This document shows, in pieces, positions 3,784 to 61,139 of a DNA stretch of 64,000 bases. The notes beneath the pieces are model-generated. The model worked only from the letters and a program-made list of their open reading frames with translations, had not been told where the DNA came from and searched no databases. Within the stretch, counting starts at the first letter, position 1. Each line of letters opens with the position of its first letter. The position numbers were made by a program, and so were the translations under genes. The DNA is taken from assembly GCA_010909165.1 (NCBI GenBank), contig MU008185.1, positions 124,001 through 188,000 on the forward strand. Reading direction: 5' to 3'. Source of the stretch: Anthoceros angustus (Eukaryota; Plantae; Anthocerotophyta).

Positions 3784-5808
3784 CTACATGTCCTTGGACA
3801 TCTTCAATCCACAGGTGTAGGTGAGCATGTCAGTCACATGAGGCTCTTCCAGCCAATGAAGAACAGCTTTGCCTCGAGCCACAAATCCACTGTTCTCGGT
3901 GTCCATGTTGAAAGGAGAACTCAGAGAAGCCAGCATGTCGGCCACAGCGACTTCTGTGGGTGATAATTCTGGCCTGGTTTGCGAATGCACAGGAAGTCCT
4001 GTGATGACACGAAACCAGTCAGGGATGTCGGCCCGGACACTGCAGTATGACTTCTTGAACATCAACAGTGACTTGGTCAGACTCACCAAGGCTGTCCCTG
4101 GCCGCATCTCCTGCAGATTCAGACTGCAGACTGGGTAACTGAAATCCGCCACTAAATAATCTAAGAACATCTGTCCTACAGCCATGTCCCAAACACAGCT
4201 CGCTTGCTGCCTGTGGCCCATCTTGTACATCAAATTCATCAGCTCATTCGCAAATGTCTGTTTAACACGCCTGCTACCATTTGCCTTGATGAAGAAACTT
4301 GAAAACCAACCACTGATAAATGGCAAGTCATTGTTTCTGTCAAACAACACGGTCAGCAGCTCCGCCACTGAGGTATCCGTGAGTCCTATCAGAATCCTGT
4401 GAACATCTGCCTCATGTTTCTCGCACTCTGACAAGCTATGCAGGATGAGCGAAGAAGTTCGAAGAGATGGTGAGAGACCCCACTGAGGTAAAAGCTCGAG
4501 AAACTGCTTTGCTTTTTGGAATAACTTCTTATTCAAATACATGGCAACCAATGTGTTGGCGACCTCTAAAGTCGGAGGTATACCTGCTGCTGTCATTCTT
4601 TCAAACCACTGAAGGCATTTTTCTACGTTGCCAGCTCTAGCATATGCTTGCATAAGACTGTTGACAGAGGTCCAATCCATCTTCAGTTCCTTGTCCAGGA
4701 GCAGCTTCTCAGCAGCCTCTACGTTGCCACTCTGCACCAGCGCTTGCATCATGATGTTTCGGACGATTTCGTTAGGAAGAAAGCCAGCTTCCTTCATGTG
4801 CGTGTTCAGCTCCAAGCACGCTTCACCATCACCTGCTTTCGCATGAATGTCCATGAGGATGCCATAAGTGAACTTGTCTGGACGAATACCTTTTAATTTC
4901 ATCTCCTCCCACCTCTGAAGTGCACTCTGCCGATCCCCCAATTTTCCCAGAGCGAGGAGCACAGCATTATATGTTACAGTGTCAGGAACAATGCCAGATT
5001 GCACCATTTGGCCAAACATCTTGATGGCCTCCTTAGGGCACCCTTGCTTGGCATACATGGTGAGCATGATCGTGAAGCTGATTCTGTCAGGCTGGCAGCC
5101 ATATTGCTTCATATTGAAGAACAGGTCAGACGCGTCCGTCACCATGCCCGCTCTGGCAAGGCTACCAATGACAGTGGTGATTGAATAGGTGTCCATCTCA
5201 CAGCCTTGTAAACGCATCTCCTGCATCAGCTCCTTCACAGTGTCCAGTTTCATGGCCTCCCCGAGAATCTTCATCATGACAGTATAAGAAAAGCGGTCAT
5301 GCTTGCAGCCTGCCTCTGCTGCGGCCCAGCGAAAAAAGTTGTAGGCCACAACGGGATCCCTGATCTGCCTCAGCACCAATACCACCTGGTAGGAGACAAG
5401 TTGCAGCTGCCATCTTCTCAGTTCTGCCAACGTCTCATGAGACCAACCCAATTGCCCCAACAAGTCAGCAATGCCGTAAACCAGTCTCGCTTTCCTGATC
5501 TCTCCACCGGCCTTTCTCTGCCCAATCTGGCTCAGCCCACTCCGTCCTTCAGCAACACTACCTGCCACCGAGTAATTCCTCGCTGGTCCTCGCCCAATTG
5601 CCTCCTCACAGGATCTCCCCGCTGAACTCAGCCACCATGTCGTGTGGATTAAGCCAGCATTCAAACTCCCGCCTGCTCCCGGAGCACCATCCCACTTGTC
5701 TGCAGTTGCCCAGCAGCAGCTGCTCCTGCGCAGGGCTCCTGCCGGCCTCAGCCATTCCCCCACTTCCTGCACATGCCACCGCCCGCCCCTGACCAGCCTC
5801 CCTATCAT
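3784..5808 (-). CDS. P-class pentatricopeptide repeat protein with C-terminal SMR domain (At1g18900/At1g74750-like), intronless, 674 aa
   Basis: Tandem 35-aa repeats (PDRISFTIMLTMYAKQG, PDTVTYNAVLLALGKLG, PDKFTYGILMDIHAKAG). C-terminus SLNLQEMRPGTALVSL...VITGLPVHS...MLASLSSPF...SGFVARGKAVLHWL matches the SMR domain of this subfamily. Confidence 0.9.
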   Translation of the reverse strand: MIGRLVRGGRWHVQEVGEWLRPAGALRRSSCCWATADKWDGAPGAGGSLNAGLIHTTWWLSSAGRSCEEAIGRGPARNYSVAGSVAEGRSGLSQIGQRKAGGEIRKARLVYGIADLLGQLGWSHETLAELRRWQLQLVSYQVVLVLRQIRDPVVAYNFFRWAAAEAGCKHDRFSYTVMMKILGEAMKLDTVKELMQEMRLQGCEMDTYSITTVIGSLARAGMVTDASDLFFNMKQYGCQPDRISFTIMLTMYAKQGCPKEAIKMFGQMVQSGIVPDTVTYNAVLLALGKLGDRQSALQRWEEMKLKGIRPDKFTYGILMDIHAKAGDGEACLELNTHMKEAGFLPNEIVRNIMMQALVQSGNVEAAEKLLLDKELKMDWTSVNSLMQAYARAGNVEKCLQWFERMTAAGIPPTLEVANTLVAMYLNKKLFQKAKQFLELLPQWGLSPSLRTSSLILHSLSECEKHEADVHRILIGLTDTSVAELLTVLFDRNNDLPFISGWFSSFFIKANGSRRVKQTFANELMNLMYKMGHRQQASCVWDMAVGQMFLDYLVADFSYPVCSLNLQEMRPGTALVSLTKSLLMFKKSYCSVRADIPDWFRVITGLPVHSQTRPELSPTEVAVADMLASLSSPFNMDTENSGFVARGKAVLHWLEEPHVTDMLTYTCGLKMSKDM

Positions 5809-6262
5809 CTCACCATACGTCGTCCACCAGAGTCAAGTCCTCGAAAGTCGGATGCCGGAGCTATGCAAGAGATGCAGACATTCCAGAAGCATACATTCCG
5901 AGCGACCCATCACAGGCCCCGCAACCGTTACGCGAGGTAGCCCTTTGGAGCTTTGCCAGATGAAGCAGACTTCTGCGGTCTCCCTGACCGCTAATGCGCA
6001 TGCACCTAGGCTTTGCGAAGGTAAGCTGAAGTCATTGTGGGTGCCGCGATAAGAGTGTGTGTCCAAACTACAGTGCGCCCTGATGTCCTTCTCCTTGCGA
6101 TGCTGCGAGGACAAGAGAGACAAAGGCGTCACCGGTGGGAACCCTGGCAACTGTATTCAGCAGACAAAAATCCAGAGACTGCACAGCCAGAACAAATTGA
6201 GACGAGCTCGTTCAACATGCAAAACACTGATCCTCTATCCTGCGCAAAAACATGAAAGTCCT

Positions 6263-11869: not shown

Positions 11870-13884
11870 TCAACAGACCTGCTCAGATGGAGGAGGTGAG
11901 ATTGTGGAAGGCTTGAAATCTAATGGCTTCTCTGCTCCACAATTTCTCCGGTTGCACTTTGTACGAAAGGGATAGTTCACATTTCCACAGGCATCACAAG
12001 TCCAGCTTCCATCCGGTGGAGGCCCTTCTGCGCACAGACGAGAATCTTCATCACCTTCCAAGAAGTTGAGGCATGCAGTGACCGCAAGTCACACAAGCTA
12101 ACTGTAAGACTTCCACATTATTGCACAACGTGAAACACTCACGAGAAGTAGGAGGTCTTGTCGCTGGACCATTACCATAGCGCGAAGACTGCACATAAAA
12201 ACTCTCACTTAGCATCAATGTGAATGACCTATATCAGACTTCACTCAGGTGAACAAGAACCTAAGTTGAAGGGAAAAACCTCACCGACTCTGTAGGCTTT
12301 GGAGCTCCACATTTCCTCATATTGCAGGTTGTTCTGAAAGCAAAATTTGTGTTTCCACATTTTGGACAGACCCAATCTCCTTCCGAATATCCATCCGGGG
12401 TAGAATGGTCTGGTGTGTGAGAGGTGGTCATTCAGGTCAGTAGTCACAAACAGGTAGCTAGGTGAACTGAAAAACAGCAGAACCAGTTTGATGCAACACT
12501 GCCTATTAGTACCTCCTCTCCGTTTTCGGTTACCATTTTCCTCTGGATACATGCTAGGACCTCTTGGGCCTGGCATCTGTGAAAAGACACTTCCATGGAT
12601 TAGTATGCACATCAGTCCACTAAAAGAGAACTTAGAAAGCCCAGGTGACAAAAACATACTGGTGGACCACGACCCATGCCTATGCCCATGGCATATCCAT
12701 CCATCATTGGGCCAGCACCATAACCAGGACCTGCAGCACCATCCAAGATACTCACAGACGCAGCTCAACACAACCACGTGCATAAGGAAGGAGAAAATAC
12801 CTCCATACATCAAAGGAAGAAAGAAGTACCTCCACCCATGACAGACCCAGGAGGAGGATATGTTGATGCCATCGGCATAGGATTGTAAGAGGCAGCATTG
12901 TTTACAGCTCCACCATAGTCATAGGGCACCGCTGATGCTGGAGGGGGTGGAATTGGCATAGGTGCGCCATAGTTTGAAGGCAATTGCAAAGGGAGGGGAG
13001 GAGGTGCTCCAGGTCCACCCATGTACATAGGTGCAGGTGCTTGTTCATAGACAGGTCCCAAGGGAACGAGACCCCTCTGTACACGAAAAACACGTCAGCT
13101 ACGCACTCAGGCAGAGAGGAGCAGATAAGCATAAGACTGCTTTGCAGCGGTGCGTAGGGTTATAATATGTACATATACCGGGGTAGCCTCTGCAGGCTTG
13201 GTTGCTCCGCACTTCCTCATATTGCATGTCGTACGGAAAGCAAAATTGACATTGCCACACTGAGGACAAGTCCAATCACCTTCACCTCTTGCAGCTGAGC
13301 ACCACGAAAGAGGACATAAGTTAAAAAAATATAAACCGTAACCGTATTGGTCCAAATCCAACCAGCCAAACCCATCATTCTTACCGCCATCGGTCCGAGC
13401 CCTCTTTGGTCCAGCAGGGCCCCGAAAATCCGTCTGCAAATGACCAGACAGTATGGTCAGGCACATAGGCAACGATACTTTCCAAGCTACAGATTCCAGT
13501 GGGTGGGCTCAATAAGACGGGCACACCACAAACATCGACACTGAAACCGCAAGGTAAAGATCGATATTAACAATTCTGGATCATAAAAAGAATATTTCCG
13601 CAATGAAAAACCTAACACCAGACGAAGGACAGGAGAAGACAGTCAGAACATGCTACTTAACCGCAGCACAGAACTGAACATCTCCTCTGCAAGCCAACAG
13701 ACACCAGAACACGTCCCACAAATATTCAACCAACCTATCCTGAGAACCCTGATACTGGGCTCATCACCCGCCATAGCCGAGATTGTACAGGAAAGGCATA
13801 CAAGATGATAAAAAAAACATGAACCCAACCAAAGAACCCAGAAACAGCAGGCAAAAGCAAGAAGCCGGTGACAACCTGCAACAT
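11870..13884 (-). CDS. RanBP2-type zinc finger protein (At1g67325-like), three fingers, multi-exon
   Basis: Exons give MLQ / TDFRGPAGPKRARTDG / ARGEGDWTCPQCGNVNFAFRTTCNMRKCGATKP, a Pro-rich linker, GDWVCPKCGNTNFAFRTTCNMRKCGAPKP and GSWTCDACGNVNYPFRTKCNRRNCGAEKP. The start exon (13884-13876) and the stop position are inferred. Confidence 0.88.
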
Positions 13885-15529
13885 GTCCACGGAGTGCCAC
13901 CTCGATGAAAAATTCAAAAAATTGCTTCACTTGACAAGTTGCACCAGGAACCCTTCTCTGTCAGAGGACCCTGGGCACGCAAGTTGCTAAGCCGGTAAGG
14001 AGGCAAGGCGATAAAGACATGAGGCAATTGGAGGTTGACGTCTGCTAATCCCAGCGGCCTCAGAACTAACTGCTCACAAAACCGTGTCACTAGGTATTAA
14101 CCATGATTACGTAAACATGGCAAAGTACTTTGCAAATACGTACCATTTTAGCACACGTCTTGTTATAAGTATTTTAATAAAAAAATGAGATAAAAAGAAA
14201 ACAGTTAGTGCTATTTCTACCAAATCCTTCAAAGAGAAATGGATATAGAATATTAAAGTAGTAATAATATATTAGAATAAAATCTTAAACTAATATTTTA
14301 TTTGCTCCACCAACCCCTAAATATATATATGCTTAAATACCTAATTTTATGTCAGCTTAACTAAAATAAAATATTCCATAAATTTCCTCTATGACACATG
14401 TAGTTATTCAATGTAGGTGAGTTAAATAAAATATTAATTTTAAATTTTAAATACATATAATAGAACTATATTAAATATTTCTTATTTTATAAGCTTATCC
14501 TCTAATTTTTCTATGGGTTGTTTCATTGAAACCTCTTTAACTCTTTTCATTATATACCCATCAACATATATATATTTTACAAAAGAGTCTGGATGCAATA
14601 TTATTATATTAAAAATATAATAGAAAATTAAAAGTAATATAAATAATATTCTATGGTATTTTGACCCAAACTCAGACAACCAACTTGCTTATTTTATGCC
14701 ACTAGGGTTATCAGCTAAAGTGAAAAAAATATATTATTAGTATTATTATTATTTTATGTAGATAAAAATATAGAAAATGAATGAAAAAGAAAAAAATATT
14801 TGTTATTGTGTCGTGGTTTAAAGCTCAACCTACATAAAAGTGTTTTAAGGCTCAACCCACATAAAATTCTCTGGATGAATATTATGATCAATTATGTGTT
14901 ATATGCCAATAGGACTTTGCACTGGAACATACATCTTTGTGTATTCCAGAGTGCAAAGTTAGATTTCTTATTGGATGCTTAACTCCATGGTTTCGACAAA
15001 ATTTATCATGTCCTATATGGAGAAATACAAAATAGATTCAAGAAGGACTAACTCGCATGGCTTTGATATTTAGTGTGCTATTGAAACCCATAATAATGTT
15101 TGCGCAGTATTTTTTTTTATCAATTCGCCTGGCATTTTTTGGTTGTGGGTTTGCCCGGCATTTTTTGTAATAAGTTGGCCTGGCATTTTTTTTCTTTTCT
15201 TTCTCCCGGCAAACCACGTTGATGTCATTACCCAAATCAAAAATTCAAGGCCCGACATGCTCCAGTCCGTAGTCTTTATCATGAACTTCTTCAAGGCCCG
15301 GCATGTTCTGGTTCTCATTCTTATCATTAACTTCTATGGAAGGGAATGTGGAGACTTTATAAAAGGAACGAGATGGGAAATCCCATCTACCCCGAGGCAA
15401 AAGGGGACAACCCACGATGGGGCACCAGGCCAGGGGGGGCGTGCCCCCGCACTAATCTACCCTATAACCCCCCACTGCCCCCAAGATGTCGCCGTCTGAG
15501 ATAGGTAAGGGCCTACTTACCACTAGTAC

Positions 15530-16260
15530 TACCAATGCCGCGTCTCCAGCACTCGTGATCGTCCTAAAGATGGCGCTGGCCAACGCCCTTTGCAGGGTGA
15601 TGGAAACTCATTGCCTGAAATATGCCACGACACTGGAAAGGAGGAGGCCAACCCGCCCCTGTCATTGTGGTAGGCCCTTGTGCACTCCTTGATAAAACGA
15701 GAAAAAACCTTACCCAAGGCCCCATGGGTTTCAATGGTAAGGGGGATGAAAATGTGACCTTGCTGCATGGGCCTATACTTGTAAATTTTCTCAGTTGCGC
15801 TCCCTTCCGCCGCCTAACCTGGAGGGTTGATGATGACATGGTCGCTAACAGAATCTCTGATTGGGTCAGTGACAACCACGTCCGCAACCGAGACCTCGTC
15901 CCCCACGTCAAGAAAAGGTCAGCTCTCATAGAGATGCCATTGAGCAGAGTATACTACCACTTCTTGAAAGGGAAGAAACCGCTCTGCTTGGCCATCGAGA
16001 ACATGACGTCTTGAACGGCGTCCTGTGTAGCAATACGTTGTCCACCCATTAGACAATGCGCTAAGTGGGCCCCAGGGTCGTCGATAGAGGCCCCACAGCA
16101 GCAGGTTGGAAGTGAACAGACTAGTGGTTAGACCAGACCCAGGCAGAACCTCATCGCAGTAGAAAAAGAAGCTGATACGATTCGGAACGCCTGGATGCAA
16201 GGGCGGGCCAGGAGCTAGGAATCTGCACCCTTTTCTGAGCAAGAGCAAAGGCGAGCTCTA
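15530..16260 (-). mobile_element. CRE-clade non-LTR retrotransposon 3' part (CCHC knuckle plus restriction-like endonuclease), decayed
   Basis: ARLCSCSEKGADS*LLARP...FSTAMRFCLGL...CCCGASIDDPGAHLAHCLMGGQRIATQDAVQD...RADL...VADVVVTDP...AEKIYKY...IPLTIETHGALG. Confidence 0.85.
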
Positions 16261-16307
16261 ACGGGACGAGGAATAGAAGAATCCAAAAGAAGACCAGCCC
16301 ACCCACG

Positions 16308-16510
16308 GGTGCGCCCTATTGCTGTTGGGGAGGCATTCCTGTGGCTTATTGGCTTACGTCATGCGACAAGTCTCTCTTTCCGTTCGTGGCAGACAACACT
16401 CATATCTTAGGACCCAGGGGCAAGGTCAATGAAGCTTTCGCACTCTTCTCTTCAGGGCTCTCCCGCCTGGGTTTGAGGGTCAAGATTCTGAAGTGCAAGG
16501 TTTGGCAATC
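16308..16510 (+). mobile_element. CRE-type reverse transcriptase fragment, inverted relative to the adjacent RLE part
   Basis: VRPIAVGEAFLWLIG followed by VADNTHILGP...SRLGLRVKILKCKVW (RT motifs RPIAVGE, xADD, GL-V---KC). Confidence 0.75.
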
Positions 16511-16539
16511 CTAGGTCCTGCAATGGATGTTGTGTGTTA

Positions 16540-17015
16540 AATGCTTGCAACATGTACCACGTACCCATCAAGTTCAAGGTACAGCTAGAAGGCATGGCAG
16601 CTACTGCTCTCTTGGACTTAGGGGCCAGCCATCACTACATCTCAGAGGTGGCTGCACGCAAGGCAGATTTGCGCATACAAGATTCACGTCAGCTGTCTAT
16701 TGTGGTCACCACTTTGGGAAGGAAGGACACTAGTGTGGAGAAGTGGGTTGAAGCTCATATCACCTTCCCTGGAGGTTATGTAGAAGAACTGAAGCTGATC
16801 GTAATGCCTAGCTTAGCCCATGACCTGATAGTGGGGAAACCGTGGCTTGCTGCCCATTCCCAGCATCTCCAAATATAGATTGGCTCAAGAATGTTGTAGA
16901 CCTGAGTGTAGGCAGCCAAAAGTATGTGTTAGAAGGGGAGACATACCTCCCAGACAAACATCTCTTTGCAGTCTCTGCACTACATAAAGCAACTGCCAAG
17001 GGCAGCTTCCAGTAC
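16540..17015 (+). mobile_element. Ty3/gypsy retropepsin fragment
   Basis: ATALLDLGASHHYIS (degenerate DSG) ... HDLIVGKPWLAAH/SPNIDW, with a frameshift. Confidence 0.8.
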
Positions 17016-17018
17016 ATA

Positions 17019-18380
17019 GTGTCATGCCGTGTGATACTAATCTTTGCACTTGGGTTTAGTGTTTGATTAGCATTAATTAATCTAATTACTTATCTTTAAG
17101 TAAGTAATTAGTGTTAATTAATCTAAGGTGCTTATGTTAATTAAGCATTGATTAGTATTAATTAAACATGGTTAGCAATAGCTAAGTGGATAAGCTCAAG
17201 TAATATGCTTTGGCATATTCCTTGCATATTATAGTGTATTCTTAGGATACAATAGCTAAGTGGATAAGCTCAAGTAATATGCTTTGGCATATTGCATATT
17301 ATAGTGTATTCTTAGGATATTTCATGTATGCCAATAGGATATCTTAGGAATATCGATGCCAGGTCTAGTATATATAGACCCTTCCATTGAGGACAAGCTC
17401 GGATCATAGCTTGTCCTCTAGATATCTGATGCAAGGCGTTGTGAGGAGGCCAAAGCTATGACTCAGGAGGCGATGTGTGAGGAATTTGCGTGTTGTTCGT
17501 GGGGAGGTGTGTTTGTGCCACGACGTGCGAGCTACTCCCTCCTGTTGTTACAAGCTATGATCTCGTGTGTGTACACTAGATAGGCGTGCTAGGCTTGGTG
17601 TGATGCTAGGCGATGCTAGGCGATGCTAGGCGATGCTAGGCGATGCTAGGTGGCGATGCTGGGTGGCGCTGGGCGATGCTGGGCGTGCTAGGCGTGCTAG
17701 GCGAGGCTACGCGCTCTTTAAGCAAGTAGGCAAGGGACTCTCAAGTGTGCCCAAGGCTTGAGGCCTAGAGAGGGACCAAGCCCAAGGCGAAGGAGGAGGA
17801 GAAGCCCAAGCCCAAGGCCAAGGAGAGGCAAGAGCCCAAGTCCAAGGCCAAGGAGAGAGGAGAAGAAGCCCAAGGCCAAGGAGAGGAGGCAAAGCCCAAG
17901 TCCAAGGCCAAGGAGAGAGGAGAAGAAGCCCAAGCCCAAGCCCAAGGCCAAGGAGGAGGCGAAGCCCAAGCCCAAGGCCAAGGAGGAGGCGAAGAAGGCG
18001 AAGAAGCCCACCAAGGAGGAATGAGGCCTCCACAGTGGCCTTTTAAGGCCAACCAACCAAGGGAGAAACAAGAGTATTTTACTCTTGGGCCCGGATTCAA
18101 GGGATAAGGGGAAGCGGATAGACATGGGTATGTCATTTGATTTCACTTTCTGTCCAAAACTCCTAGTTGTGCACCCCATCCAGGTCTGATCCACCCCACG
18201 GTGCTTAACTCTGGAGTTCTACCTTTGCTATCCAACTCACCCAGCTCACATTTTTGACTGTATAGCCTGCAGAGTATTATGCGATTTTAACATGCATAGA
18301 TACTTAGAGGTTTCACTAATCACGATCTAAGATAGCGGGTGTGTTAACCTTGATTAAGGGTTTGATCTAGCCACTAACCG
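17019..18380 (+). repeat. Putative LTR/5' UTR of the methyltransferase-carrying retrotransposon, with internal tandem repeats
   Basis: Starts tgtca where the protease fragment breaks off. Contains a ~72-bp duplication (17176-17320), a TATA-like tatatatag at ~17368, gcgatgctag repeats (17600-17700) and aagcccaagg-rich repeats (17770-18015). It directly precedes the gag ORF. No partner LTR or clear PBS was seen. Confidence 0.4.
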
Positions 18381-18390
18381 CCTGGAGTGC

Positions 18391-20520
18391 ATGCCGACAC
18401 ACTCGATCCGGACGGAGCTACCAACCAAGTCCATCGAGCGAATTCAAGTCCCGACCAAGAGGAGAAGTGCGACACTCGATTTTGGTACCACCGAAGGGCG
18501 GAGGAACCCGACACAATCAACAATCTTTGAAGGATCCGTGAGTGGCAACACACAAGACACGTTAGTCTTTGCCGGGACAACTCGGAAGGCCGAGGAGGAC
18601 TTGTCTCTTGGAGTCGTCAAGATGGGAGGAGACAAGGATCGAATGGAGTTGTTCAGGGGCGGCGGGCACCTTGCCTGGAGGACTTCATCGAGAAATGCAG
18701 TGCGGTGTGTGCGGAGATGGAATTGAAGACCGGATACACGAAGCGATACGGCTTCATCCAAATGCCGAAGTACTTGGGGGATGAAGCATTGGCGTGCTAT
18801 CGCGAGCACAAGGCGAGGCTTGAGCAAGGAGGACCCGGTGAGTAGCGGTTCAAGCTCGAAGGAACCGGTGCGAGCAGGCGGTGGCCGAGTGGGCACGATC
18901 CCATCGAAGAGATGTTTGACATCTTCGGTGGAGTTTCCGCAAGCACGGATGAGAAGATCTCCGGTGACACACTTCAAGATGAAGTCGAGGCTGCGAAGAT
19001 GGCTTACCGAAGAATCGACCAGTTGGTACGTGACACCAAGATCATGAGTGACCGACTGGCTGCAGAGAAGTACTTGCAGGCATTGCCATATGCACTGCGC
19101 ATGAAGGTGCAACAAGCGGTGCACAGCACGAAGGGGCAACACTACACCCTCAAGGAAGTGTACGAGATGGCTGACAAGATAGGGCCCGCTGACACTTTCT
19201 CTCGTGCTGTTGCAAGTGATTACTCCAGCACAAGTAGGAGTGGTGGGCGACATGGCCAAGCGGAGGTCGAGTGGAGGAGCTCGGCGAGACAAGCCGCCCA
19301 CACCCAAGTGGAGCCCTGCGTGAGGTGCCGAGGGACGGACCATTCCCCTCATGAGTGCGAGCATGCATTCGGAGGAGTCAAGGGTGAGGAGCCATGCCCT
19401 AGCTGTGGGAGGTACGGGCACAATGAAGCGGCATGTTGGGAGAAGCATCCGGAATTGCGGCCTACGGGTTATCGAGCAGCAACCCCGGCCAATGCATCTG
19501 CGTCAACCTCATCCACAAAATCAGCGAAGAGCAAAGGCGCCGTGGAGGAGGCGAAGTCCCGTGGACAAAAGAAACGGGAAGCATCAAAGAAGGCGATGGG
19601 CGCTCGTGGCACGCCTTGCAAAGCTGGAGTTGGTGCGGAAGGCGAAGATCAAGGAGGCGGCGGTTCATCATCGAGGACGAAGAAGATGAGCACAAGCTTG
19701 GATACATGGCGGCGTGACCGGATCCAAGGGCAGGAAGAAACCTCCGGCACTACGAGAGAAGATAGCTCGGAGGAAGAGGATGTCTTGACACCAGCGGTCA
19801 CGGAAGACACGGAAGGAAGCTTGGGGATCCTCTTCCGAACCTATGCCAAGATGCCAAAGTCGTTTGAGCCATTGCCAGCAGAGCAGTGGGAGCAACATCA
19901 AAGTCCAGTGGGCGATGTGGAGAAACCCATGCATGATTCGGCGGACGATGGCACAAAAGCTTGGAGATGCCATGTTTGACCTACAAGACATGGGGTTGAG
20001 CGTGAAGGAAGTCGGGTTTGACTCGGCGGATGTTGACAACCCTTGAAGGCGAAGCAAGTGTCGACAATGTGCCTGGTGGCAATGATGTCATTGTTGACCT
20101 CGAGCCAAGCATCTCGTGGAGAAGCGGAATCTTTGCAGTGGGAGTGGCTTTGGTCAACAATCGGAGAGGCACATTGAAATCAATGGATTCGCACCAAGGA
20201 GGTGTTGATTGACAAGCACGGTGATGATCGTTGGAAGAAGAGTGAAGGAAGCGTTGGGTCTCCACCAAGAAAGGTTGAAGGAAACCAAGTGGAAGATCCG
20301 AGCTGGGACCACGGAGCATGTGTTGGGGTGACAAGGTACAAGCTGAAGGTTTCATTCAAACCAAGAAGCAGACTTCACCTTTGTCGAGGTACACCGCTTG
20401 GTCAATGCAGACACTTTTGATGTCTTCTTTGGGAGCGCTTTGTACAAACACAGGTCATGGTGGATTTGTGGAGACAGTCTACTATCGACCAGTGGAGAAG
20501 CTGGAGCAAAACCGATGAAC
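18391..20520 (+). mobile_element. Retrotransposon gag (CCHC knuckles) and degenerate aspartic protease, frameshifted
   Basis: EKYLQALPYALRMKV..., CVRCRGTDHSPHEC and CPSCGRYGHNEAAC zinc knuckles. Downstream are RVLID (~20200) and VNADTFDVFFGSAL (retropepsin N- and C-halves). Confidence 0.75.
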
Positions 20521-20879
20521 GGATTGCCCGCATCCCTCTACAGCATGGCAAGGATCATGAGAACCTCATTGCCAGCGTCTACCCAGTGTTTTGGCGCCGT
20601 AGTGAAGGACACGCCATACGTGCTTGAACCTCTTGGCGTGTGTCTAACAACCGTGACGATGGAGGATTTCGACGAGGAGGAGGAAAACAAGCTAGGGTTG
20701 CAACCACCCTCGGAGGAGGTTCTTCAAGTCACTCGGACGGAGTGGATCAGCAATGAGCCGTGCAAAAGGCTGTGGAGGATGGTGCAAGAGGACCGTGCCC
20801 TATGAGCCGAGAACTGTAAGTTCTTGCCTAGGGTTGAGCCTGTTTGTGACCTAAACACCCGGTCATCACATGGCGACCT

Positions 20880-21560
20880 CGGGGAAGCATAGTGCTCGTG
20901 GAACTCTTTGGAGGCATCGATGCGGCTTGGGCGGTGCTAAAGTGTGGCATCAAAGTGCGAAGATCGTGCATTGTGACCCGGATCCAAAAGCAAGGATTGT
21001 GTCAGTGCGCGTAAGAGACTTGATGGGGAGTACCTAACCTCGGCGTGGGAGTCGGTGAAGGGTTACCGTGCCGATGGATGTTCGCATGATAGGGTTGTCC
21101 CATTTGAGTTGTCTTGGGCAACCGGTGGACCTTGTCATCGCAGGTTGGGAGTATCAAAGACTCTCCTCTGCAGGTGAGGGTCAAGGTCTGAAGGATCCAC
21201 GAACGCATTGTTCTATGACGATGAGGATCTTGCGCTTGATCCGAAAGGGCAAGAAAGGCCTTGTGGATACATGTTGGAGAATGTGCCGGCATGCATGAGC
21301 GTGAAGAAGCAAGTTCGGAGGACTTTGCCACGATCCGAGGAGTGTTGGGTCGGGAGCTTCTATTGGATGCGACTCAATTTGGTTCGAGGGCTCATAGGTT
21401 GAGGTCCATGTGGACTAACCTTGCTCCCTTGGAACATTTGAAGTGTGCGAGGTCGTTCACCAAGCGACCTAATCATGTTGTCAAGGATGTGCTAGCATCG
21501 GAAGGCATGCCCAACAAGTCATCAAGGCCCGACAAGGCGCACTTCCGTGAACACGCCGAC
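20880..21560 (+). pseudogene. Retrotransposon-borne DNMT3-like C5-cytosine DNA methyltransferase, copy 1 (frameshifted, 3'-truncated)
   Basis: Motif I IVLVELFGGIDA (20889). Motif IV region PVDLVIAGWEYQRLSSAG..GLKDPR (~21125-21200; catalytic TGT is TAT here). Motif VI GYMLENVP (21265). Motif VIII DATQFGSRAHRLRSMWTNL (~21365-21420). Confidence 0.85.
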
Positions 21561-22324
21561 ACCCCATTTTTAATAGTTTATTTGAATCGGTTTGTGTAGT
21601 CCTAATGAAATTTGTGTTTTGGTAATGTAGAAATATCACTAGCCATTGAAAATAAGGAGTTGAAAACCACAGACTTGTTGACTACGATGGAAGATCCGGA
21701 AGCGCAAAAACATCAAAAGGTTGGATTGTAACAATTTACGCATGTAAACAAGGAAAATATTAATATAGGTATTCACCTAATATTCAAATTCTAAGGTTGA
21801 TATTTCTTTGCGAGCGTTCAATCACATTTCCGTAGTGTGGGAAATCTTCACGACCATTGCCTCACATTAGTGAGAAAGGTATTTACCGAGCAAGATCTTC
21901 TTCGACTTGAAATGGAGGTAAAATATTAAGTTTTTGTTTGTAGTTATCGAAGAATCAAAAGGAGTTGTTTGCCCTATTTGAGGTTAGTATATCATATTTC
22001 TGATTGGTGAAATCTAATATGTACGATATGCAGTATTTATCATTGCTGCGAAATATTCCGTTGGGAAATTTTGAAATGATTAACTTTCTTTTACGGACCG
22101 TACAATGAACAAAGAAAGAAGTATTATTACGAAACGAAGCGGATCCGAAATCGCGGTGTACACCCCTTCAACACCAGGAAGAAAGTTAGAAAGGATAAAT
22201 CCCAAAAGCTGTGGAGGATGGTGCAAGAGGACCAAGTCCCTATGAGCCGAGAATCACTGTAAGTTCTTGCCTAGGGTTGAGCCTGCTTAGGACCTAAACA
22301 CCTGTGTCATCACATGGCGACCTC

Positions 22325-23000
22325 GGAAGACGGCATAGTGCTCGTGGAACTCTTTGGAGGCATCGACGCTTGAAGCAAGCAAAGTGTGGCATCAAAGTGC
22401 GAAGATACGTGCATTGTGACCCGGATCCAAAAGCAAGGATTGTGTCACGAGCGCGTAAGAGACTTGATGGGGAGTACCTAACCTCCCGACGGGAGCCGTG
22501 AAGGGTTACCGTGGCCGATGGATGTTCGCATGATAGGGTTGTCCCATTTGAGTTGTCTTGGGCAACCGTGGACCTTGTCATCGCAGTTGGGAGTGTCAAG
22601 GACTATCCTCCGCAGTAAGGGTCAAGGTCTGAAGGATCCACGAAAGATTGTTCTATGACCGATGAGGATCTTGCGCTTGATCCGTAAAGGGCAAGAAAGG
22701 CCTTGTGGATACATGTTGGAGAATGTGCCATGCATGAGCGTGAAGAAGCAAGTTCAGGAGGACTTTGCCACGATCCGAGGAGTGTTGGGTCGAGCTTCTA
22801 TTGGATGCAATTTGGTTCGAGGGCTCATAGGTTGAGGTCCATGTGGACTAACCTTGCTCCTTGGAACATTTGAAGTGTGCGAGGTCGCTCACCAAGCGAC
22901 CTAATCATGTTGTCAAGGATGTGCTAGCATCAGGAAGGCATGCCCAACAAGTCATCAAGACTGACAAGCTGCCGCACTTCCCTGTGAACACGCCTGGACA
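22325..23000 (+). pseudogene. Retrotransposon-borne DNMT3-like C5-cytosine DNA methyltransferase, copy 2
   Basis: EDGIVLVELFGGIDA, KCGIKVRRYVHCDPDPKARIV, WECQGLSSA (catalytic Cys TGT at 22594), YMLENVP, RAHRLRSMWTNL, DKLPHFPVNTPG. Many 1-2 bp indels. Confidence 0.85.
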
Positions 23001-24164
23001 CCCCATTTTTAATAGTTTATTTGAATCAGTTTGTGTAGTCCTAATGAAATTTGTGTTTTGGTAATGTAGAAATATCACTAGCCATTGAAAATAAGGAGTT
23101 GAAAACCACAGACTTGTTGACTCTGATGGAAGATCCGGAAACTACAAAAAACATCCAAAAGGTTAGTTCTGTAACAATTTCTGCATGTAAACAAGGAAAA
23201 TATTAATATAGGTATTCACCTAATATTCAAATTCTAAGGTTGATATTTCTTTGCAGAACGTTCAATCACATTTCCGTAGTGTGGGAAATCTTCACAGCCA
23301 TTGCCTCACATTAGTGAGAAAGGTATTTACCGAGCAAGATCTTCTTCGACTTGAAATGGAGGTAAAATATTAACACCGTTTTTTGTTTGTAGTTATCGAA
23401 GAATCAAAAGGAGTTGTTTGCCCTATTTGAGGTTAGTATATCATATTTACAGTGGTGAAATCTAATATGTACGATGTCTGATATTTATCATCAGTAAATA
23501 TTCCTGCTTGGACGAAATAAATGATTAACTTTCTTCCGGACCGTATAATGAACAAAGAAAGAAGTATTATTCAAGATGAGCAGATCCAAATCGGTGTACA
23601 CCCCTTCAACACCAGAAGAAAGTTAGAAAGGATAAATCCCAAACCGTGAATGCAAACGAAAAGGCGTGAAAGTGAAAACTACGAAGTGCGAAAGTGGTGA
23701 AATCTAATATGTACGATGTCCGATATTTATCATTGCCTCGCAGAAATATTCCGCTGACGAAATTAAATGATTAACTTTCTTCCGGACCGCATAATGAACA
23801 AAGAAAGAAGTATTATTCAAGACAGAAAGCGGATCCGAAATCGCGGTGTACACCCCTTCAACACCAGAAGAAAGTTAGAAAGGATAAATCCCAAAACGTG
23901 AATGTGCAAACGAAAAAGGCGTGAAAACTCAAGTGCGAAAGTGAAAACTGGAAAGAGAGAGAAAAAGACTTTTAAAGTGGTTGCACAAGGCAACGATTCT
24001 AAGATGCGCCTAGACCTCGACTCATTTCGATGCGAAGTCGGTGGTAAGCGCGTCGGCCCCGACGGGTGGCGCGCGGAGGGAGGCGAGCGCTCGTCGGGCG
24101 CACGGTCTAGAACGGTCTCGGCCCTAACCCGGCCTCGGCCGTTCTCGACGCCAGCCCGCCTCCG

Positions 24165-24977
24165 GCAATACCGTTCAATACATTCAGCCGCCAATGTTGT
24201 CGTGGCTCCTGCCTGACAAGCATCCACAACCCAATCTCCTTCCACAGAATGTTTTGACAAGTTTTGTCATAAGGCCTAGCGGGCGTTGGTAAGGGCATAC
24301 CACCGCTTGTGCGTGCGATAGGTGGGACTTCTTGACGACAGTGGGGTGCCCAATAATTGTCCTTCCATTGTTGAAAGTCCCATGCATGGCGTTAGGCATC
24401 ATAGGAACCCAGTCTCTCGCACAACCGCTTTTTGACACCATCCCAGCATCACGTACTCGGCGGTCTCAAATCGCCTACGTGGCATTCATGTTGTCTTGTC
24501 CCGGATGAAGGACACCATGCCTCCTTCCCACACAATTTCCGCATAGACTTCGACGTGTGGGCTTCTTCAACTCCATGCAAGACGATGGCACCTCCTCGCC
24601 GGTGGTCTTCTCTTCAAAACTCAAAATCGTACTCCATCATGGCCAAATCCATGCACTTGTCCATAGGACCGATGTCAAAGCCACGGGGACGCCCATGACA
24701 AGCAAAGTGTATCTCCTTCCCGCAGATAACCACGCATGTCAAGAACATTACGCCCTTCGACCGCATCGACCTGCTCCGATGGAACGTTGAAAACGTGGAG
24801 TCCCTCTTGCAAGTCCTTGTCTGCTAAAGCCCGCTGCTCATTCTCCAAGCCCTTCCAATTATTGATCTCAAATATGAAATGGCGAAACTCCTCGGGAAGT
24901 TTCGACAAGACCTCCACATCCTTCAATTGCTGCATGCAATCCGAATGGTCAGTGAAGAATATCCTATACTTTTCCAC
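24165..24977 (-). pseudogene. Beta-class N4-cytosine/N6-adenine DNA methyltransferase remnant inside a DNA-transposon-like element
   Basis: Degenerate catalytic motif IV YTLLVMGVPxGFD (DPPY-like, ~24675-24710) lies upstream of VVCPYQRPLGLMTKLVKTF..EGDWVVDAC.AGATTTLAA (motif X and SAM-binding motif I). This order is the beta class. Frameshifted. Confidence 0.75.
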
Positions 24978-32711: not shown

Positions 32712-33851
32712 TTAAAGCGGTCTAATATGGCACCTGCACGGAAAATTACAACCCACTCTTAGGACCCGGAGTAATAACGAAACAGAGTAATCACGAAAAT
32801 TGCAGTACATGTCAAGATGGAACCGCTATCTTCGCTGGAACGTCGTACCCAAGGAGGCCATTGCCTGACCATATTCTCGGAGTCACAGAAAGGTGGACCA
32901 GGTCCCCACGCCTTAAGACCACCACCGCCACCGCTCGACCTTCGTTGATTTGACCTTCTCGCCCCAGTCTCGGCAAGAGGTTGTCACCTCCCTGTACGCT
33001 TCCGAAGCGAACAAGCTGATCTCCCACCTTCAGACCGTCTACCGCTGCAGGGGAACCGTCGGTTACCTCGTCAAAGAACGCAAACGGTTGTCTGTTGCTA
33101 CTATCCTCATCCATGGGAGCTGGGCCAGCATTGTGGAACCCGGCTTCTAGCTGTGTAGGTTGAGCAGGTCGAGCAGCTATAGACCTGTATGGTGTGGCAT
33201 CTGCCCGCTCAACTGGAAACCCAAACCATGAGCAAAGAGTCAAGGTAAGGCACTATTTTCATCACCCCCATTCTCAAGCACTGAATTTGCTGAGCCTCCC
33301 GAATATTTCACCTAATCTCTTCAAGGGCGTCGTCGACTTGTCCTTGCTGACGCCGGCTAAATGCAGCTCCTGCAGCTTTTCCTCGATCCTTGCTGTGAGC
33401 TCTTGGTGATCAGTCCGCAGCACTACACCAACGGCCACCAAGTCATGAGTAGAGAGCGTCACCCACCTACCCAACCCTACCACCCTGCCCCCACCAAAAC
33501 CAGCCAGTATGTACCCTCCGGTCCCTGGCGGAAGCGAGGAGACAGAAGCATCAGCAACCTGCTAGACGATGCCGCTCTGCCCTAACTTTGGGAATGTCGA
33601 TGTCAGCTCTCGGAAAGCCCTAGCAAGCATTGCAATCCTGGCGTCATCAGGACACGCTAATTTCCTCAATGAAGTCGGCGAAAGGCACTGACTGGCAAGC
33701 AAATCATCACCTCGCTATCAACAAGGTTGCCAGAGAGGCCAGCGCCGTTAGGGCCAGTCAGGCGGTCTATGATGCCCTGCATCTCGGCTTCCACAGCAGC
33801 GCGCTTGTCCATCAGCGCCAGAGTCTCCATCTTGGAAGTTGTGACCACCAT
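32712..33851 (-). CDS. PSMD9: 26S proteasome non-ATPase regulatory subunit 9 (Nas2/p27 assembly chaperone), multi-exon
   Basis: MVVTTSK...LMDKRAAVEAEM...GLSGNLVDSE / GFPRADIDIPKVRAERHRLA / LRTDHQEL..., a PDZ-like PFAFFDEVTDGSPAAVDGLKVGDQLVRFG...VTPRIWSGNGLLG, and a last exon CHIRPL-stop (32712-32714). Confidence 0.93.
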
Positions 33852-34160: not shown

Positions 34161-35312
34161 TCATCCCATGGCCGCCTTCAAGGCATCTCCCGCTCCTTGG
34201 AAGAAGAGCCAGGAGAAGACGAAATCGGCGATGAAGATGCAGACCAAGGAGATGACAACGGCCGAGGTGGTGGACTCTCCCACGCCCTTGGCGCCCCCGG
34301 ACGTGGTGACCCCCCAGGCGCAGCTGACGACGGAGATGATGGCACCGAAGGCAGAGGACTTGATCATGGTGCTGATGAGGTCCCAGGGCTGCAGGGCCCG
34401 GGCGGCGGAGTCGAGGATGATGTTGGAGCTGACGTGGTAGACGCCGTCGGCGAGCAGGACGCTGGCCGCCATGGCCACGCTGAAGCAGATGATGGTGAGG
34501 ATGGGCAGGGCGATGCTGCAGGCGATGACGCGGGGCGTGATGAGGTAGTCGACGGGGTCCGTTCTGAGCACCCGCAGCGTGTCCGTCTGCTCCGAGACCT
34601 GCATGGTGCCCAGCTCGGCTGCGAACGCGCTCCCGACCCTGCCGCACAGGATGATGGCCGTTACCACGGGGGAGAGCTCCCGGGACAGGGCCAGGGCCAG
34701 GACCCCGCCCACGGATCTGGTGAGCCCCAGCCGGGCGAATTCGCGCACGAATTGGATGGTGAACACCATGCCCACGAAGGAGGCTGTGAGCAGGCTGACG
34801 CCCAGGGAGCCCGGGCCGACCAGGGCCAGCTGCTGCAGCGTGTTGCGCGCATGGACTCGGCCTCGCAGGATCCGGAGCAGCACCTGGCCGGCGATGACGA
34901 AGGCCGCCATGGAGCGCCACAGGTAGCGGGGGAGCTGCCACACTCTTGTCGCGCCTCCTCCTTGGGGCTCTGGGTCCTGGTCGTGGGCCGCCGCTGATGC
35001 CAGGCCGGGCGTGGGAGCTCCATCGTCGCTCGCGTTCACTGCGGCTGTACTGGCCAAGGCGAGACAGGGCCACCCGCTGCTGCTTCTCCGCTGCTTGCTG
35101 TTGCCGTTGCCTTTGCCTTTGCGGCCGCCTCCATCTCCGATACTCAAATTGCACAAGCGGATGGTGGGAGCAGGAAGGAGAAGACGGCGCGTGCAACGCC
35201 TCGTGTTGAGCAGGACAAACGCAATTTGAGCGTCGCCGCCTGAGCGCAGCTTGCCTGCATGATGCCCGCTAAGCGCTCGCAAGGAGGACGCAGCAGCCAT
35301 GCCCGCTTGCAC
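34161..35312 (-). CDS. TGD1: TRIGALACTOSYLDIACYLGLYCEROL 1 (MlaE-family lipid ABC permease), chloroplastic, intronless
   Basis: VGPGSLGVSLLTASFVGMVFTIQFVREFARLGL, RELSPVVTAIILCGRVGSAFAAELGTMQVSEQTDTLRVL, GAKGVGESTTSAVV. Confidence 0.95.
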   Translation of the reverse strand: MQAGMAAASSLRALSGHHAGKLRSGGDAQIAFVLLNTRRCTRRLLLPAPTIRLCNLSIGDGGGRKGKGNGNSKQRRSSSGWPCLALASTAAVNASDDGAPTPGLASAAAHDQDPEPQGGGATRVWQLPRYLWRSMAAFVIAGQVLLRILRGRVHARNTLQQLALVGPGSLGVSLLTASFVGMVFTIQFVREFARLGLTRSVGGVLALALSRELSPVVTAIILCGRVGSAFAAELGTMQVSEQTDTLRVLRTDPVDYLITPRVIACSIALPILTIICFSVAMAASVLLADGVYHVSSNIILDSAARALQPWDLISTMIKSSAFGAIISVVSCAWGVTTSGGAKGVGESTTSAVVISLVCIFIADFVFSWLFFQGAGDALKAAMG

Positions 35313-35676
35313 CGCTTTTCATATGTTGCGCTTCCCATTTCAATTCTGAACCCATCGTTTCAACCCCGTTAAACTTGCAGCATTTGCTGTAGGCTACGTA
35401 TGTGTCTAAAATGGTGGCTTCACTTAACCCCAGAATGACGGCCCTTCGATGGAGGCAGAATTCGCATTTCTTGTTGCAACGAGGCCAGTGGGAGCTTGTT
35501 GGACAGCTTGGCGTCAACATTGTGCAGCGATTGTTTTCCGTGATCTCAAATAGTTGAATTCTGCTTTAGAAGGAAAATGACGAACTCCCGAACTGTACAA
35601 TCCCGTCGTGCTGGGGTTAGGGTCCTGCCAATGAAGATGACAGTGTTATCCCGCGTTGCCTCTCTGCATATGTATT

Positions 35677-42887: not shown

Positions 42888-44852
42888 TAGGGTCCCTGCG
42901 TGCGCTCATCCGTAATTTCTGGTGTAATTCCTGGAGAGTTCAGCTATGAAGAGATGCCTTGTAGCAATTGATGAGCAGTTATGGTAGTTACCCAGCTTTC
43001 CCTATCACCAGATACACGAAACCCTAGTCAGTATTTCTATTAGTTAGGTTTCCACTCCTTAGATATCGTATTTTTCATTTTTAAGCACACTTGCTTACCT
43101 TTCCTTGGATCCCTATCTACACAATTCACAATGGCGCTAGTTCCTAGACCCCCACCTCCTCCTGGTTCCCCACAGCCATCATTCACAGCAGATATGAAGG
43201 AGCGTGATAGATTCAATGGCACCAAATTCGAAATATGGAAGGTGCGCATGAAGTCTACACTGGTTGCCCGGAGAGTCTGGCAAGTGGTGGACGGAACCAC
43301 TCCAGATCCTGGCCATGGTACTCCAGCCAATCCTGCAGTCTTCCTAAGATGTCAGAATGGACTAAGTCGAGAACTGTTGTTGTTCTGTGCCGAGGAACTT
43401 GTGGAAAGGGAGTCTCACGCTGCTTTGCAAGAGCACATACCTCACATATGGACAGCTCCTTAAAACATTTGGGTAAAGGCTCCCTATAGCAATCCTGCTT
43501 AGAAGATTCAATGAGTTTAGTTCTATTAGCATGGCCAAGGCGTGCGTGTCACGAGGCTACGATTGCGTAGGCATCAAGCTATCGAGTCGTTGAGAAAGCA
43601 CATCTCGTCATGTGCAGGATATCCAGACGATACAACTCAAAATCAAGGAAAGCCTTAAAACAACGTCTCTCAGCATAGGGGTTATTCTTCATTAAAGGGG
43701 TTTGGGTCTCTAAAGACCAAAAAATGACCCAGCAGGCCAAAATGCATCATCTTTAGCAAAACCACTCTTTAGACATGTCTTGAAACACATTGACCATGTT
43801 ATTTTCGTGAATACTTACGCTAAGGGGTTTAAGCCGAAGAAGGTTGGCAGTTTCACCTTCACAAGGAAGGATTTCAAGGATTTTTAACGGTGCTAGGGTC
43901 CTATGCGCTCATCCGTAATTTACGGTGTAATTCCTGGAGAGTTCAGCTTTGAAGAGATGCCTTGTAGCAATTGATGAGCAGTTATGGTAGTTACCCAGCT
44001 TTCCCTATCACCGGATACGAAACCCTAGTCGATTTCTATTAGTTAGGTTTCCACTCCTTAGATATCGTATTTTTCATTTTTAAGCACACTTGCTTACCTT
44101 TCCTTGGATCCCTATCTACACAATTCACAATGGCGCTGGTTCCTAGACCCCCACCTCCTCCACAGTTCCCCACCATCATTCACAGTGAGATATGAAGGGC
44201 GTGATAGATTCAATGGCACCAAATTCGAAATATGGAAGGTGCGCATGAAGTCTACTGGTTGCGAGAGTCGGCAAGTGGTGGACGGAACCACTCAGATCAC
44301 AGCCATGGTACTCCAATCTGCGTCTTCCTAAGATGTCGAATGGACTAAGTCGAGAATTGTTGTTACATGTAGAGGAACTTGTGGAAAGGGAGTCTCACGC
44401 TTTGCAAGAGCACATACCTCACATATGGACAGCTCCTTTGGGTAAAGGCTCCTATAGCAATCTGCTTAGAAGATTCAATGAGTTTAGTTCTATTAGCATG
44501 GCCAAGGCGTGCGTGTCACGGCCGATTGCGTAATTTATCAAGCTATCAAGAGTCGTTGAGAAAGCCTGCTCTCGTCATGTGCAGGATATCCAGACGATAC
44601 AACTCAAAATCAAGGAAAGCCTTAAAACAACGTCTCGGGGGTTATTCTTCATTAAAGGGTTTGGGTCTCTAAGACCAAAAAATGACCCAGCAGGCCAAAA
44701 TGCATCATCTTTAGCAAAACCACTCTTTAGACATGTCTTGAAAGACATTGACCATGTTATTTTCGTGAATACTTACGCTAGGGGTTTAAGCGAAGAAGGT
44801 TCATGATTTCACCTTCACAAGGAAGGATTTCAAGGATTTTTAACGGTGCTAG
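42888..44852 (+). mobile_element. ~1-kb tandem duplication containing a copia gag N-terminal fragment
   Basis: DRFNGTKFEIWKVRMKSTLVARRVWQVVDG at ~43205 and again at ~44205. The second unit differs mostly by small deletions. Confidence 0.8.
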
Positions 44853-60800: not shown

Positions 60801-61125
60801 ATTTTACCGGGGAAGTTGCTTCCACGCTTTTAAGAACCATGGATACTTCACATAGCGTATGAGCAGCTGTGACCGACGCTTGTACAACGCCATATTTCCA
60901 ACTTTGTATACGCCGGGTAGATTAAATACTTCCAAATTAGGAAGCCGCCGCCATAAACATAAAAGCATTGTCCATCCAAGAAATGGCATCAAGCGATAAG
61001 TAGATTGTGCTCTCGGGTTTGGTCCGAAACCATCCCAAGGGGATTCCAAAAGACTACGCCTTTAGGCTCCTCATACCTCTTGTGCCCAAAGCGATACACT
61101 CTTTGAAAGCCTTCAGCAGACAAGA
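57886..61125 (-). mobile_element. Second, inverted copy of the DUF7869-like transposon (3' two-thirds)
   Basis: Reverse complement of ~50000-54452 (SKSYVEPHKYI, HVVGCMIHNY, RPFWIGKVTCV). Terminus catgatatctttcgaagggggtg starts at 57886. Confidence 0.85.
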
Positions 61126-61139
61126 GTCGCCTCCCATGA

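Follow-up and report, generated by a model that had tools for sequence, protein, structure and literature searches.

A broken Ty3/Gypsy retrotransposon copy with a DNMT3-like methyltransferase after gag and protease in Anthoceros angustus

Results

A gag-protease-methyltransferase element

We analyzed a 64,000-nucleotide stretch of Anthoceros angustus DNA (GenBank assembly GCA_010909165.1, contig MU008185.1, positions 124,001 to 188,000, forward strand; the window), in which a retrotransposon encoding a DNMT3-like cytosine methyltransferase after gag and protease had been predicted from the sequence alone. The feature is real, and belongs to a kind of element known from the alga Klebsormidium and now found in a land plant. 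We are highly confident of its identity as a Ty3/Gypsy family of the KnitGypsy-Dnmt3 kind. The parts of the window copy and its flanks are as follows:

16492..17020, + strand: protease of a different Ty3 element, the probable insertion target (Pfam RVP_2, E 6.9e-8)
17021..17575, + strand: candidate left terminal repeat (A module), beginning TGTCATG, end approximate
17602..17994, + strand: short tandem repeats in the 5' leader, periods 10 and 30
18391, + strand: ATG, start of the element's coding part (read directly)
18391..19976, + strand: gag, with N-terminal part, capsid-like region and two CCHC knuckles; one frameshift and one stop before 18846
18846-19976, + strand: gag open frame (read directly)
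19317-19358 and 19395-19436, + strand: CCHC knuckles, exact C-X2-C-X4-H-X4-C (read directly)
20202..20510, + strand: retropepsin remnant; catalytic Asp codon at 20211, then a frameshift
20874..21545, + strand: DNMT3-like C5-methyltransferase copy 1, motifs I-VIII; five frameshifts as assembled, Tyr at the catalytic Cys position
20901, + strand: motif I, ELFGGID (read directly)
21140-21157, + strand: motif IV (read directly)
21277-21285, + strand: motif VI, ENV (read directly)
21387-21419, + strand: motif VIII, RAHRLRSMWTN (read directly)
21560..22203, no strand: AT-rich sequence (35% GC) unrelated to the element, which ends abruptly here
22204..23643, + strand: tandem second copy of 20765-22203 (90.7% identity, 72 gap columns)
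22317-23004, + strand: methyltransferase motifs I-VIII in copy 2; Cys kept, eight frameshifts

The predicted gag with two knuckles, degenerate retropepsin and ordered motifs I, IV, VI and VIII all held up. Frameshift-aware alignment, with X placed at breaks, against a profile built from 42 relatives gave methyltransferase scores of 183.6 for copy 1 and 167.8 for copy 2, against 14.7-19.1 for four shuffles. With eight shuffles each, the protease scored 52.7 against its family profile (shuffles at most 17.2), the capsid region 56.9 (at most 17.4), the N-terminal part of gag 28.1 (at most 13.5) and the knuckle region 44.2 (at most 25.1). By tblastn, the window gag matched that of Marchantia polymorpha Mp4g09160 (E 3e-7, 26% over 189 amino acids), and gag plus the linker are homologous between the window and gene models of Marchantia and Sphagnum.

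A proposed scan with Pfam DNA_methylase (PF00145) succeeded in relatives and not on the window's own fragments: one of ten methyltransferase-region fragments from the two copies matched, at E 0.15 and below the cut-off, while the motif-VIII fragment, searched against 1.84 billion representatives, returned 121 matches, with PF00145 in 19 of the 30 scanned. The ESM Atlas confirmed PF00145 and added nothing further. The Pfam zf-CCHC and protease families had no match among the element's single fragments.

The original prediction gave motif IV as AGWECQ. No single copy reads so: copy 1 has AGWEYQ, with Tyr replacing the catalytic Cys, and copy 2 has WECQ after a frameshift, so the predicted motif blends the two. 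The ECQ form itself stands as a family trait, being the commonest motif IV (38 of 60 motif matches among 127 proteins), and we rejected a reading of ECQ as a sign of decay.

As predicted, the element lacks its 3' part. Reverse transcriptase (RT), RNase H (RH) and integrase (INT) had no match anywhere in the window, motifs IX-X had none at or near the element, and AT-rich sequence follows the break near 21560. Judged from its sequence, the window element as assembled cannot work, because the S-adenosylmethionine-binding motif X, RT and integrase are absent.

Copy number and assembly quality

Contigs from three runs, representing three organisms, matched window positions 17000-24500 in large numbers: 2917 (X1), 2776 (X2) and 6790 (X3). 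They cover 13 of 13 bins from 18255 to 21517, after which X2 and X3 cover collapses. The family is thus multi-copy, and at least three organisms closely related to the host carry it in high numbers. A presumed RNA run (X24) gave only six contigs, which have no bearing on expression. In run X6, one 567-base contig at depth 7171 (depth is not copy number) matches the motif-VIII region at 21380-21526, a hint that organism D carries the family in many homogeneous copies.

Between copies 1 and 2 there are 43 gap openings and 65 mismatches, in contrast to one gap opening per 130-176 mismatches in three of three pairs of diverged relatives. Because of this excess of indels, the duplication and many of the frameshifts look like noise from an unpolished long-read assembly, and the second copy is likely an assembly artefact. 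Contigs of X1 and X3 that reach 22203 continue into sequence like that upstream of copy 1. The junction at 22203/22204 and the break near 21555 are bridged by no listed contig, which is no proof since X1 is without cover at 22020-22179. Since the sequence of the element stops at one and the same position in each copy, the truncation may be real.

Other large duplicates in the window are also indel-rich (42901-44853, 49243-50216 and 23451-23943, and an inverted duplicate, 49997-53138 versus 57950-61145), a pattern that suggests unpolished assembly in repeats.

The AT-rich sequence at 21560..22203 is repetitive in run X1 and without cover in X2, X3 and X6. It forms a repeat with short exon-like frames at 21560-22203 and 23000-23900, repetitive in X1 only; these frames had no Pfam match.

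At the left end, the upstream Ty3 protease frame stops where the candidate A module starts (17021), and contigs of X1-X3 are numerous on 17021..17575, with X2 and X3 cover nearly stopping beyond 17752. The candidate repeat shares its TGTCATG start with the A repeats of moss-like relatives described below, with no DNA similarity to the moss-like A repeat past these first seven bases. The right end is missing, leaving this left-hand candidate as the only trace of the element's terminal repeats in the window. The upstream Ty3 element is separate (15490-17020, a gag-like remnant and an RVP_2 protease, ending at 17020), and the window showed no RT half for it.

Polyprotein layout in relatives

To place the truncated copy, we compared it with longer relatives. 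All long matches are retrotransposon polyproteins or gag-protease-DNMT open reading frames (ORFs). Among the 46 matches of at least 400 amino acids, RNase H precedes DNMT in 22 (RT-RH-DNMT-INT-PHD) and the protease (PR) lies directly before DNMT in three; the other 21 are uninformative. The methyltransferase seems to have changed slot within the polyprotein. The second common layout, RT-RH-DNMT-INT-PHD, is seen in P0121, P0127, P0130, P0148, P0190 and others.

A profile of the PR-DNMT group retrieved 41 long proteins, of which 14 are Marchantia polymorpha clusters (with overlap between two annotations), with one protein each from Klebsormidium nitens and Sphagnum fallax, and 25 others. One relative, P0262, is a complete gag-PR-DNMT-RT-RH-INT polyprotein. 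The Klebsormidium model GAQ92009 (KFL_009030040), which we infer to be a KnitGypsy-Dnmt3 member, has DNMT-RT-RH-INT by Pfam and a protease upstream by profile, and Marchantia MARPO_0091s0058 has DNMT-RT-RH. We also analyzed moss-like loci, the best 80 of 211 from a scan with Mp4g09160; three of them placed in a tree group with the Sphagnum protein. DNMT comes next after the protease in 57/57 loci with a protease match and just before RT in 51/51 with an RT match, and RH-DNMT order occurs in 0/80. The whole chain gag-PR-DNMT-RT-RH-INT-PHD is present in 13 of the 80 (two probably the same insertion), so that the gag-PR-DNMT-RT-RH-INT order predicted for intact copies does exist.

From the protease Asp to motif I there are 230 codons in the window, 230 in Klebsormidium and 235-247 in Marchantia (159-423 across all 12 measured relatives). 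This spacing matches relatives, and therefore leaves no intron and no deleted RT between protease and DNMT; the earlier view of an intronless methyltransferase within the polyprotein agrees with it, and a lost intervening RT is ruled out. The window also shares with the PR-DNMT group a short loop before motif IV and a W-containing stretch before motif I. Judged by its 230-codon spacing and its gag similarity to Mp4g09160, the window element probably belongs to the gag-PR-DNMT-RT-RH-INT layout.

The methyltransferase resembles DNMT3

A 16-sequence family profile matched DNMT3A best in the PDB (72.7 bits, E 2.6e-19), above the best DRM-type enzyme (40.7) and M.HhaI (30.7). The predicted fold of P0221, an intact ECQ-type relative of the RT-RH-DNMT group (predicted local distance difference test score 86.8), gave DNMT3A/B/C structures in 33 of 33 of the matches listed. 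By profile and predicted fold, the family is DNMT3-like. DRM methyltransferases have a rearranged order, with motifs VI-X before I-V; a plant DRM gene is excluded by the linear motif order of the window and by the lower scores of DRM structures.

Of 65 moss-like loci, 62 retain the catalytic Cys codon and 58 retain ENV; the alga, liverwort and moss-like branches all conserve Cys, ENV, RxR and motifs I, IX and X. Median ratios of nonsynonymous to synonymous substitution rates (dN/dS) in the moss-like loci are 0.35 for RT, 0.37 for RNase H, 0.42 for integrase, 0.43 for gag, 0.59 for protease, 0.60 for DNMT and 0.80 for the linker.

In a DNMT tree (fast search, midpoint root, no host DNMT3 outgroup, noisy rows), the window sequence falls on its own branch, so that, on the sequences compared, land plants appear to hold at least two branches. 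Marchantia P0250 shares 72-75% DNMT identity with Sphagnum P0287 and with the moss-like locus L003, with short RT branches. This liverwort-moss identity is high for such old lineages, and horizontal transfer is possible.

Ends and a conserved stop codon in relatives

Complete moss-like elements have split repeats in the order A-coding-B-A-B, whole in L028, L056/L078 and L066, with the B-A-B end seen in L006 and L040. The layout was thus found, though not between the plain pair of long terminal repeats (LTRs) that had been expected. These elements begin with TG and end with CA, and six insertions with both ends have 4-bp target duplications (exact in four, one transition off in two). Four of the six are reduced to A-coding-B, a form that may arise by B-B recombination. 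Elements with split repeats, TG...CA ends and 4-bp target duplications include:

L028: 8370-17689
L056: 8509-17714
L017: 8523-17162
L030: 2507-11240

DIRS elements have a tyrosine recombinase instead of a DDE integrase and usually lack target duplications. The relatives carry Integrase_H2C2 and rve domains, TG...CA ends and 4-bp duplications, which excludes a DIRS element. The moss-like elements combine a DDE integrase with DIRS-like split repeats.

We found a conserved in-frame TAG or TAA followed by CAA, 80 codons past the DNMT domain, in 43 of 56 moss-like loci; the rest are mostly frameshifted. An example follows:

L003: 13847-13849 (also L006 and L056): TAG/TAA, then CAA-CCC-ATG

The ATG three codons past the stop permits re-initiation, and UAG-CAA is similar to the signal that directs readthrough in tobacco mosaic virus. 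Five Marchantia ORFs (1278-1281 amino acids, 95-98% identical) end at this position. In P0262 and the Klebsormidium model, the stretch from DNMT to RT lacks a stop of this kind. The stop is a candidate readthrough or re-initiation site, and would place the enzyme at Gag level in the Marchantia/moss branch. Four of 15 listed members of the Mp4g09160 cluster (MpVg00370, MpVg00540, MpVg00690 and MpVg00480) lie on the V sex chromosome.

Other features of the window

One of the genes listed below, TGD1, encodes a protein 87-89% identical to the best named moss and liverwort proteins (83% for Riccia), 86% to its Selaginella counterpart, 80-85% to those of streptophyte algae and 76-83% to those of seed plants. 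In a 38-row tree, it groups with one other protein on a branch apart from mosses, liverworts, lycophytes, ferns, seed plants and the algae sampled, within a polytomy. By this gene, the host is likely a non-seed land plant and, by elimination, likely a hornwort. The remaining features noted in the window are:

336-1558, - strand: SAWADEE-domain gene
3787-5832, - strand: PPR gene
13110-13508, - strand: RanBP-type zinc finger gene
32815-33252, - strand: PDZ-domain gene
34164-35318, - strand: TGD1/MlaE gene
43044-43460, + strand: copia-type gag

Discussion

A retrotransposon that may mark its own DNA

On balance, we favor reading the window feature as a broken, 3'-truncated copy of a multi-copy Ty3/Gypsy element that carries a DNMT3-like enzyme in its Gag-protease polyprotein and, in intact copies, likely methylates its own complementary DNA (cDNA). 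The protease would release the methyltransferase from the Gag-protease polyprotein, and the methyltransferase would be packaged with Gag in the particle. In the Marchantia/moss branch, the enzyme, encoded before the conserved stop, would be made at Gag level, and RT-RH-INT would follow by readthrough or re-initiation. Inside the particle, the enzyme would mark new cDNA before integration, such that new copies arrive methylated. We consider self-methylation of cDNA about an even bet.

Several results weigh against this reading. The observed/expected CpG ratio is 0.83 in the element versus 0.51 in the upstream Ty3 element; this shows no CpG depletion and gives no support for heavy CG self-methylation. 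Constraint on DNMT in the moss-like loci (0.60, from non-independent decayed copies) is weaker than on RT and RNase H, and also weaker than the dN/dS below 0.2 reported for the Klebsormidium element domain in excerpts of de Mendoza et al (2018; PMC5890265). The KnitGypsy domain showed no activity in yeast, a result its authors call inconclusive, human DNMT3B having failed too (PMC5890265, in excerpt). In the fast tree, the window DNMT is sister to the RT-RH-DNMT-INT-PHD group (Shimodaira-Hasegawa-like approximate likelihood ratio test support 98), and it is only 36-39% identical to the Marchantia/Sphagnum branch. Because of this divergence and placement, the moss-branch stop codon and split repeats need not apply to the window element. 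Finally, five window fragments used as queries had no relative among 398 candidates (31-209 amino acids), and the host lineage yielded no intact copy.

The strongest alternative, though unlikely, is that the domain is a DNA- or nucleosome-binding module with little or no catalysis, acting with a PHD finger to steer integration or shield cDNA. In those 38 of 60 motif matches, Glu takes the place of the Pro that precedes the catalytic Cys, many relatives carry a PHD finger after integrase, and the yeast result fits as well. Inactive DNMT homologues such as DNMT3L lose catalytic residues. Here they are kept: Cys, ENV, RxR and motifs I, IX and X persist across three branches, and for this reason we disfavor a binding module; the predicted P0221 fold, matching DNMT3A over the whole domain, also speaks for an enzyme.

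Alternatively, the enzyme could act mainly in trans, on the host genome or rival elements, when the family is expressed. We regard this as rather improbable. If made at Gag level, as in the Marchantia/moss branch, the enzyme would be plentiful, and de Mendoza et al offer a speculation of this sort for Symbiodinium (PMC5890265, in excerpt). Against this, excerpts of the same paper describe the Klebsormidium methylome as ordinary and plant-like, the hornwort A. agrestis is almost without CHH methylation (PMC10952607, in excerpt), and an element that pays for the gene would share the benefit of action in trans with others.

Somewhat less probable still is a host family that is non-autonomous, with gag-PR-DNMT and no RT or integrase, or that lost RT-RH from an RT-RH-DNMT-INT layout. 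The window holds no RT or integrase, its DNMT is sister to the RT-RH-DNMT group, and several relatives' ORFs stop after DNMT. These ORF ends are explained by the conserved stop before RT, and the protease-to-motif-I spacing, the short pre-motif-IV loop and the W-containing stretch before motif I fit a native PR-DNMT layout instead. The 567-base X6 contig also continues past the window break into other sequence, on a basis of 30 letters.

A host DNMT3 gene or processed pseudogene lying by chance beside a gag-protease remnant, the case that was to refute the original prediction, is largely refuted already and has a negligible chance: bryophytes do have host DNMT3 genes (PMC6453930, in excerpt) and Pfam support on single fragments is weak, but the long matches are all retrotransposon-linked polyproteins with no introns and a fixed spacing, and in three organisms the repeat contigs number in the thousands and fall on gag, PR and DNMT alike.

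Implications

The advantage to a retrotransposon of having its own cytosine methyltransferase has been a question since 2018, partly because Symbiodinium and Klebsormidium are hard to work with. Marchantia polymorpha holds several intact, 95-98% identical gag-PR-DNMT ORFs filed as hypothetical, and because it is a model with mutants and methylomes, the function becomes testable there. The extension of a known kind of element to bryophytes, together with these intact ORFs, is the main value of our findings; the window copy is a damaged, truncated and noisy pointer only. Counts of DNA methyltransferases in bryophyte genomes should also be read with caution, as they include transposon genes.

A broader reading joins these observations, and we offer it tentatively. 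DNMT3-carrying Ty3 elements would occur in all three bryophyte lineages, in at least two branches, with a methyltransferase that has moved between two slots (before RT, or between RNase H and integrase). In liverworts and mosses, the enzyme would sit on the Gag side of a leaky stop and load every particle, insertions would arrive methylated, and a self-marking element would have been recently active in Marchantia.

Comparison with known systems

Host DNMT3 enzymes (human DNMT3A/B, Physcomitrium PpDNMT3b) share with the element the fold, the linear motif order and the RxRxxW-N motif VIII, but are spliced single genes with other accessory domains and are about 20-24% identical in structural alignments. 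The EpiLTRs of Cymbomonas and Euglena are LTR elements with a C5 methyltransferase and a chromatin reader; unlike in the window family, excerpts of their description (bioRxiv 10.64898/2026.05.21.726589) place their DNMT as sister to DNMT4, paired with a DAM domain and a chromodomain.

SymbioDIRS-Dnmt3 of Symbiodinium likewise has a DNMT3-type domain within a retrotransposon polyprotein. In excerpts of PMC5890265, it differs in belonging to the DIRS class, with a tyrosine recombinase and an independent acquisition, and its domains are active on CG in yeast as de novo methyltransferases; such elements, in the authors' proposal, methylate cDNA. The same source corrects the earlier statement that dinoflagellate elements carry DNMT5: they carry DNMT3 (DIRS) or an orphan DNMT (long interspersed nuclear element).

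Within land plants, Mp4g09160, MpVg00370, MpVg00540, Mp5g06330 and Mp5g06860 of Marchantia polymorpha and BDL97_09G086500 of Sphagnum fallax have the same gag-CCHC-PR-DNMT order, annotated as hypothetical or CCHC-domain proteins. They differ from the window in having a PCQ motif, and the Marchantia ORF1 copies are intact and near-identical. The hornwort element is therefore an embryophyte representative, as proposed, though not a lone case. Full-text literature searches, whose scope did not extend to the Marchantia genome paper or transposon databases, found no description of DNMT3-carrying elements in land plants, and an earlier mention is possible; six Marchantia gene identifiers had no match in literature full text. 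Papers of 2025 and 2026 (the latter bioRxiv 10.64898/2026.05.21.726589) refer, in excerpt, to 'streptophytes' on the basis of previous studies, a term that may or may not cover land plants.

The closest known system is KnitGypsy-Dnmt3 of Klebsormidium nitens, a DNMT3-carrying element of the sort that the original prediction had correctly cited for this alga, with repeats in the order A-coding-B-A-B (de Mendoza et al, 2018; PMC5890265, Fig. 4 legend). The window element differs in its land-plant host, its domain identity of about 40%, ECQ in place of PCQ, its separate tree branch and its truncation after motif VIII. It shares the intronless, non-rearranged DNMT3-like domain and the 230-codon PR-DNMT spacing, and its relatives share the Ty3/Gypsy domain set and, in the moss-like group, the A-coding-B-A-B repeats.

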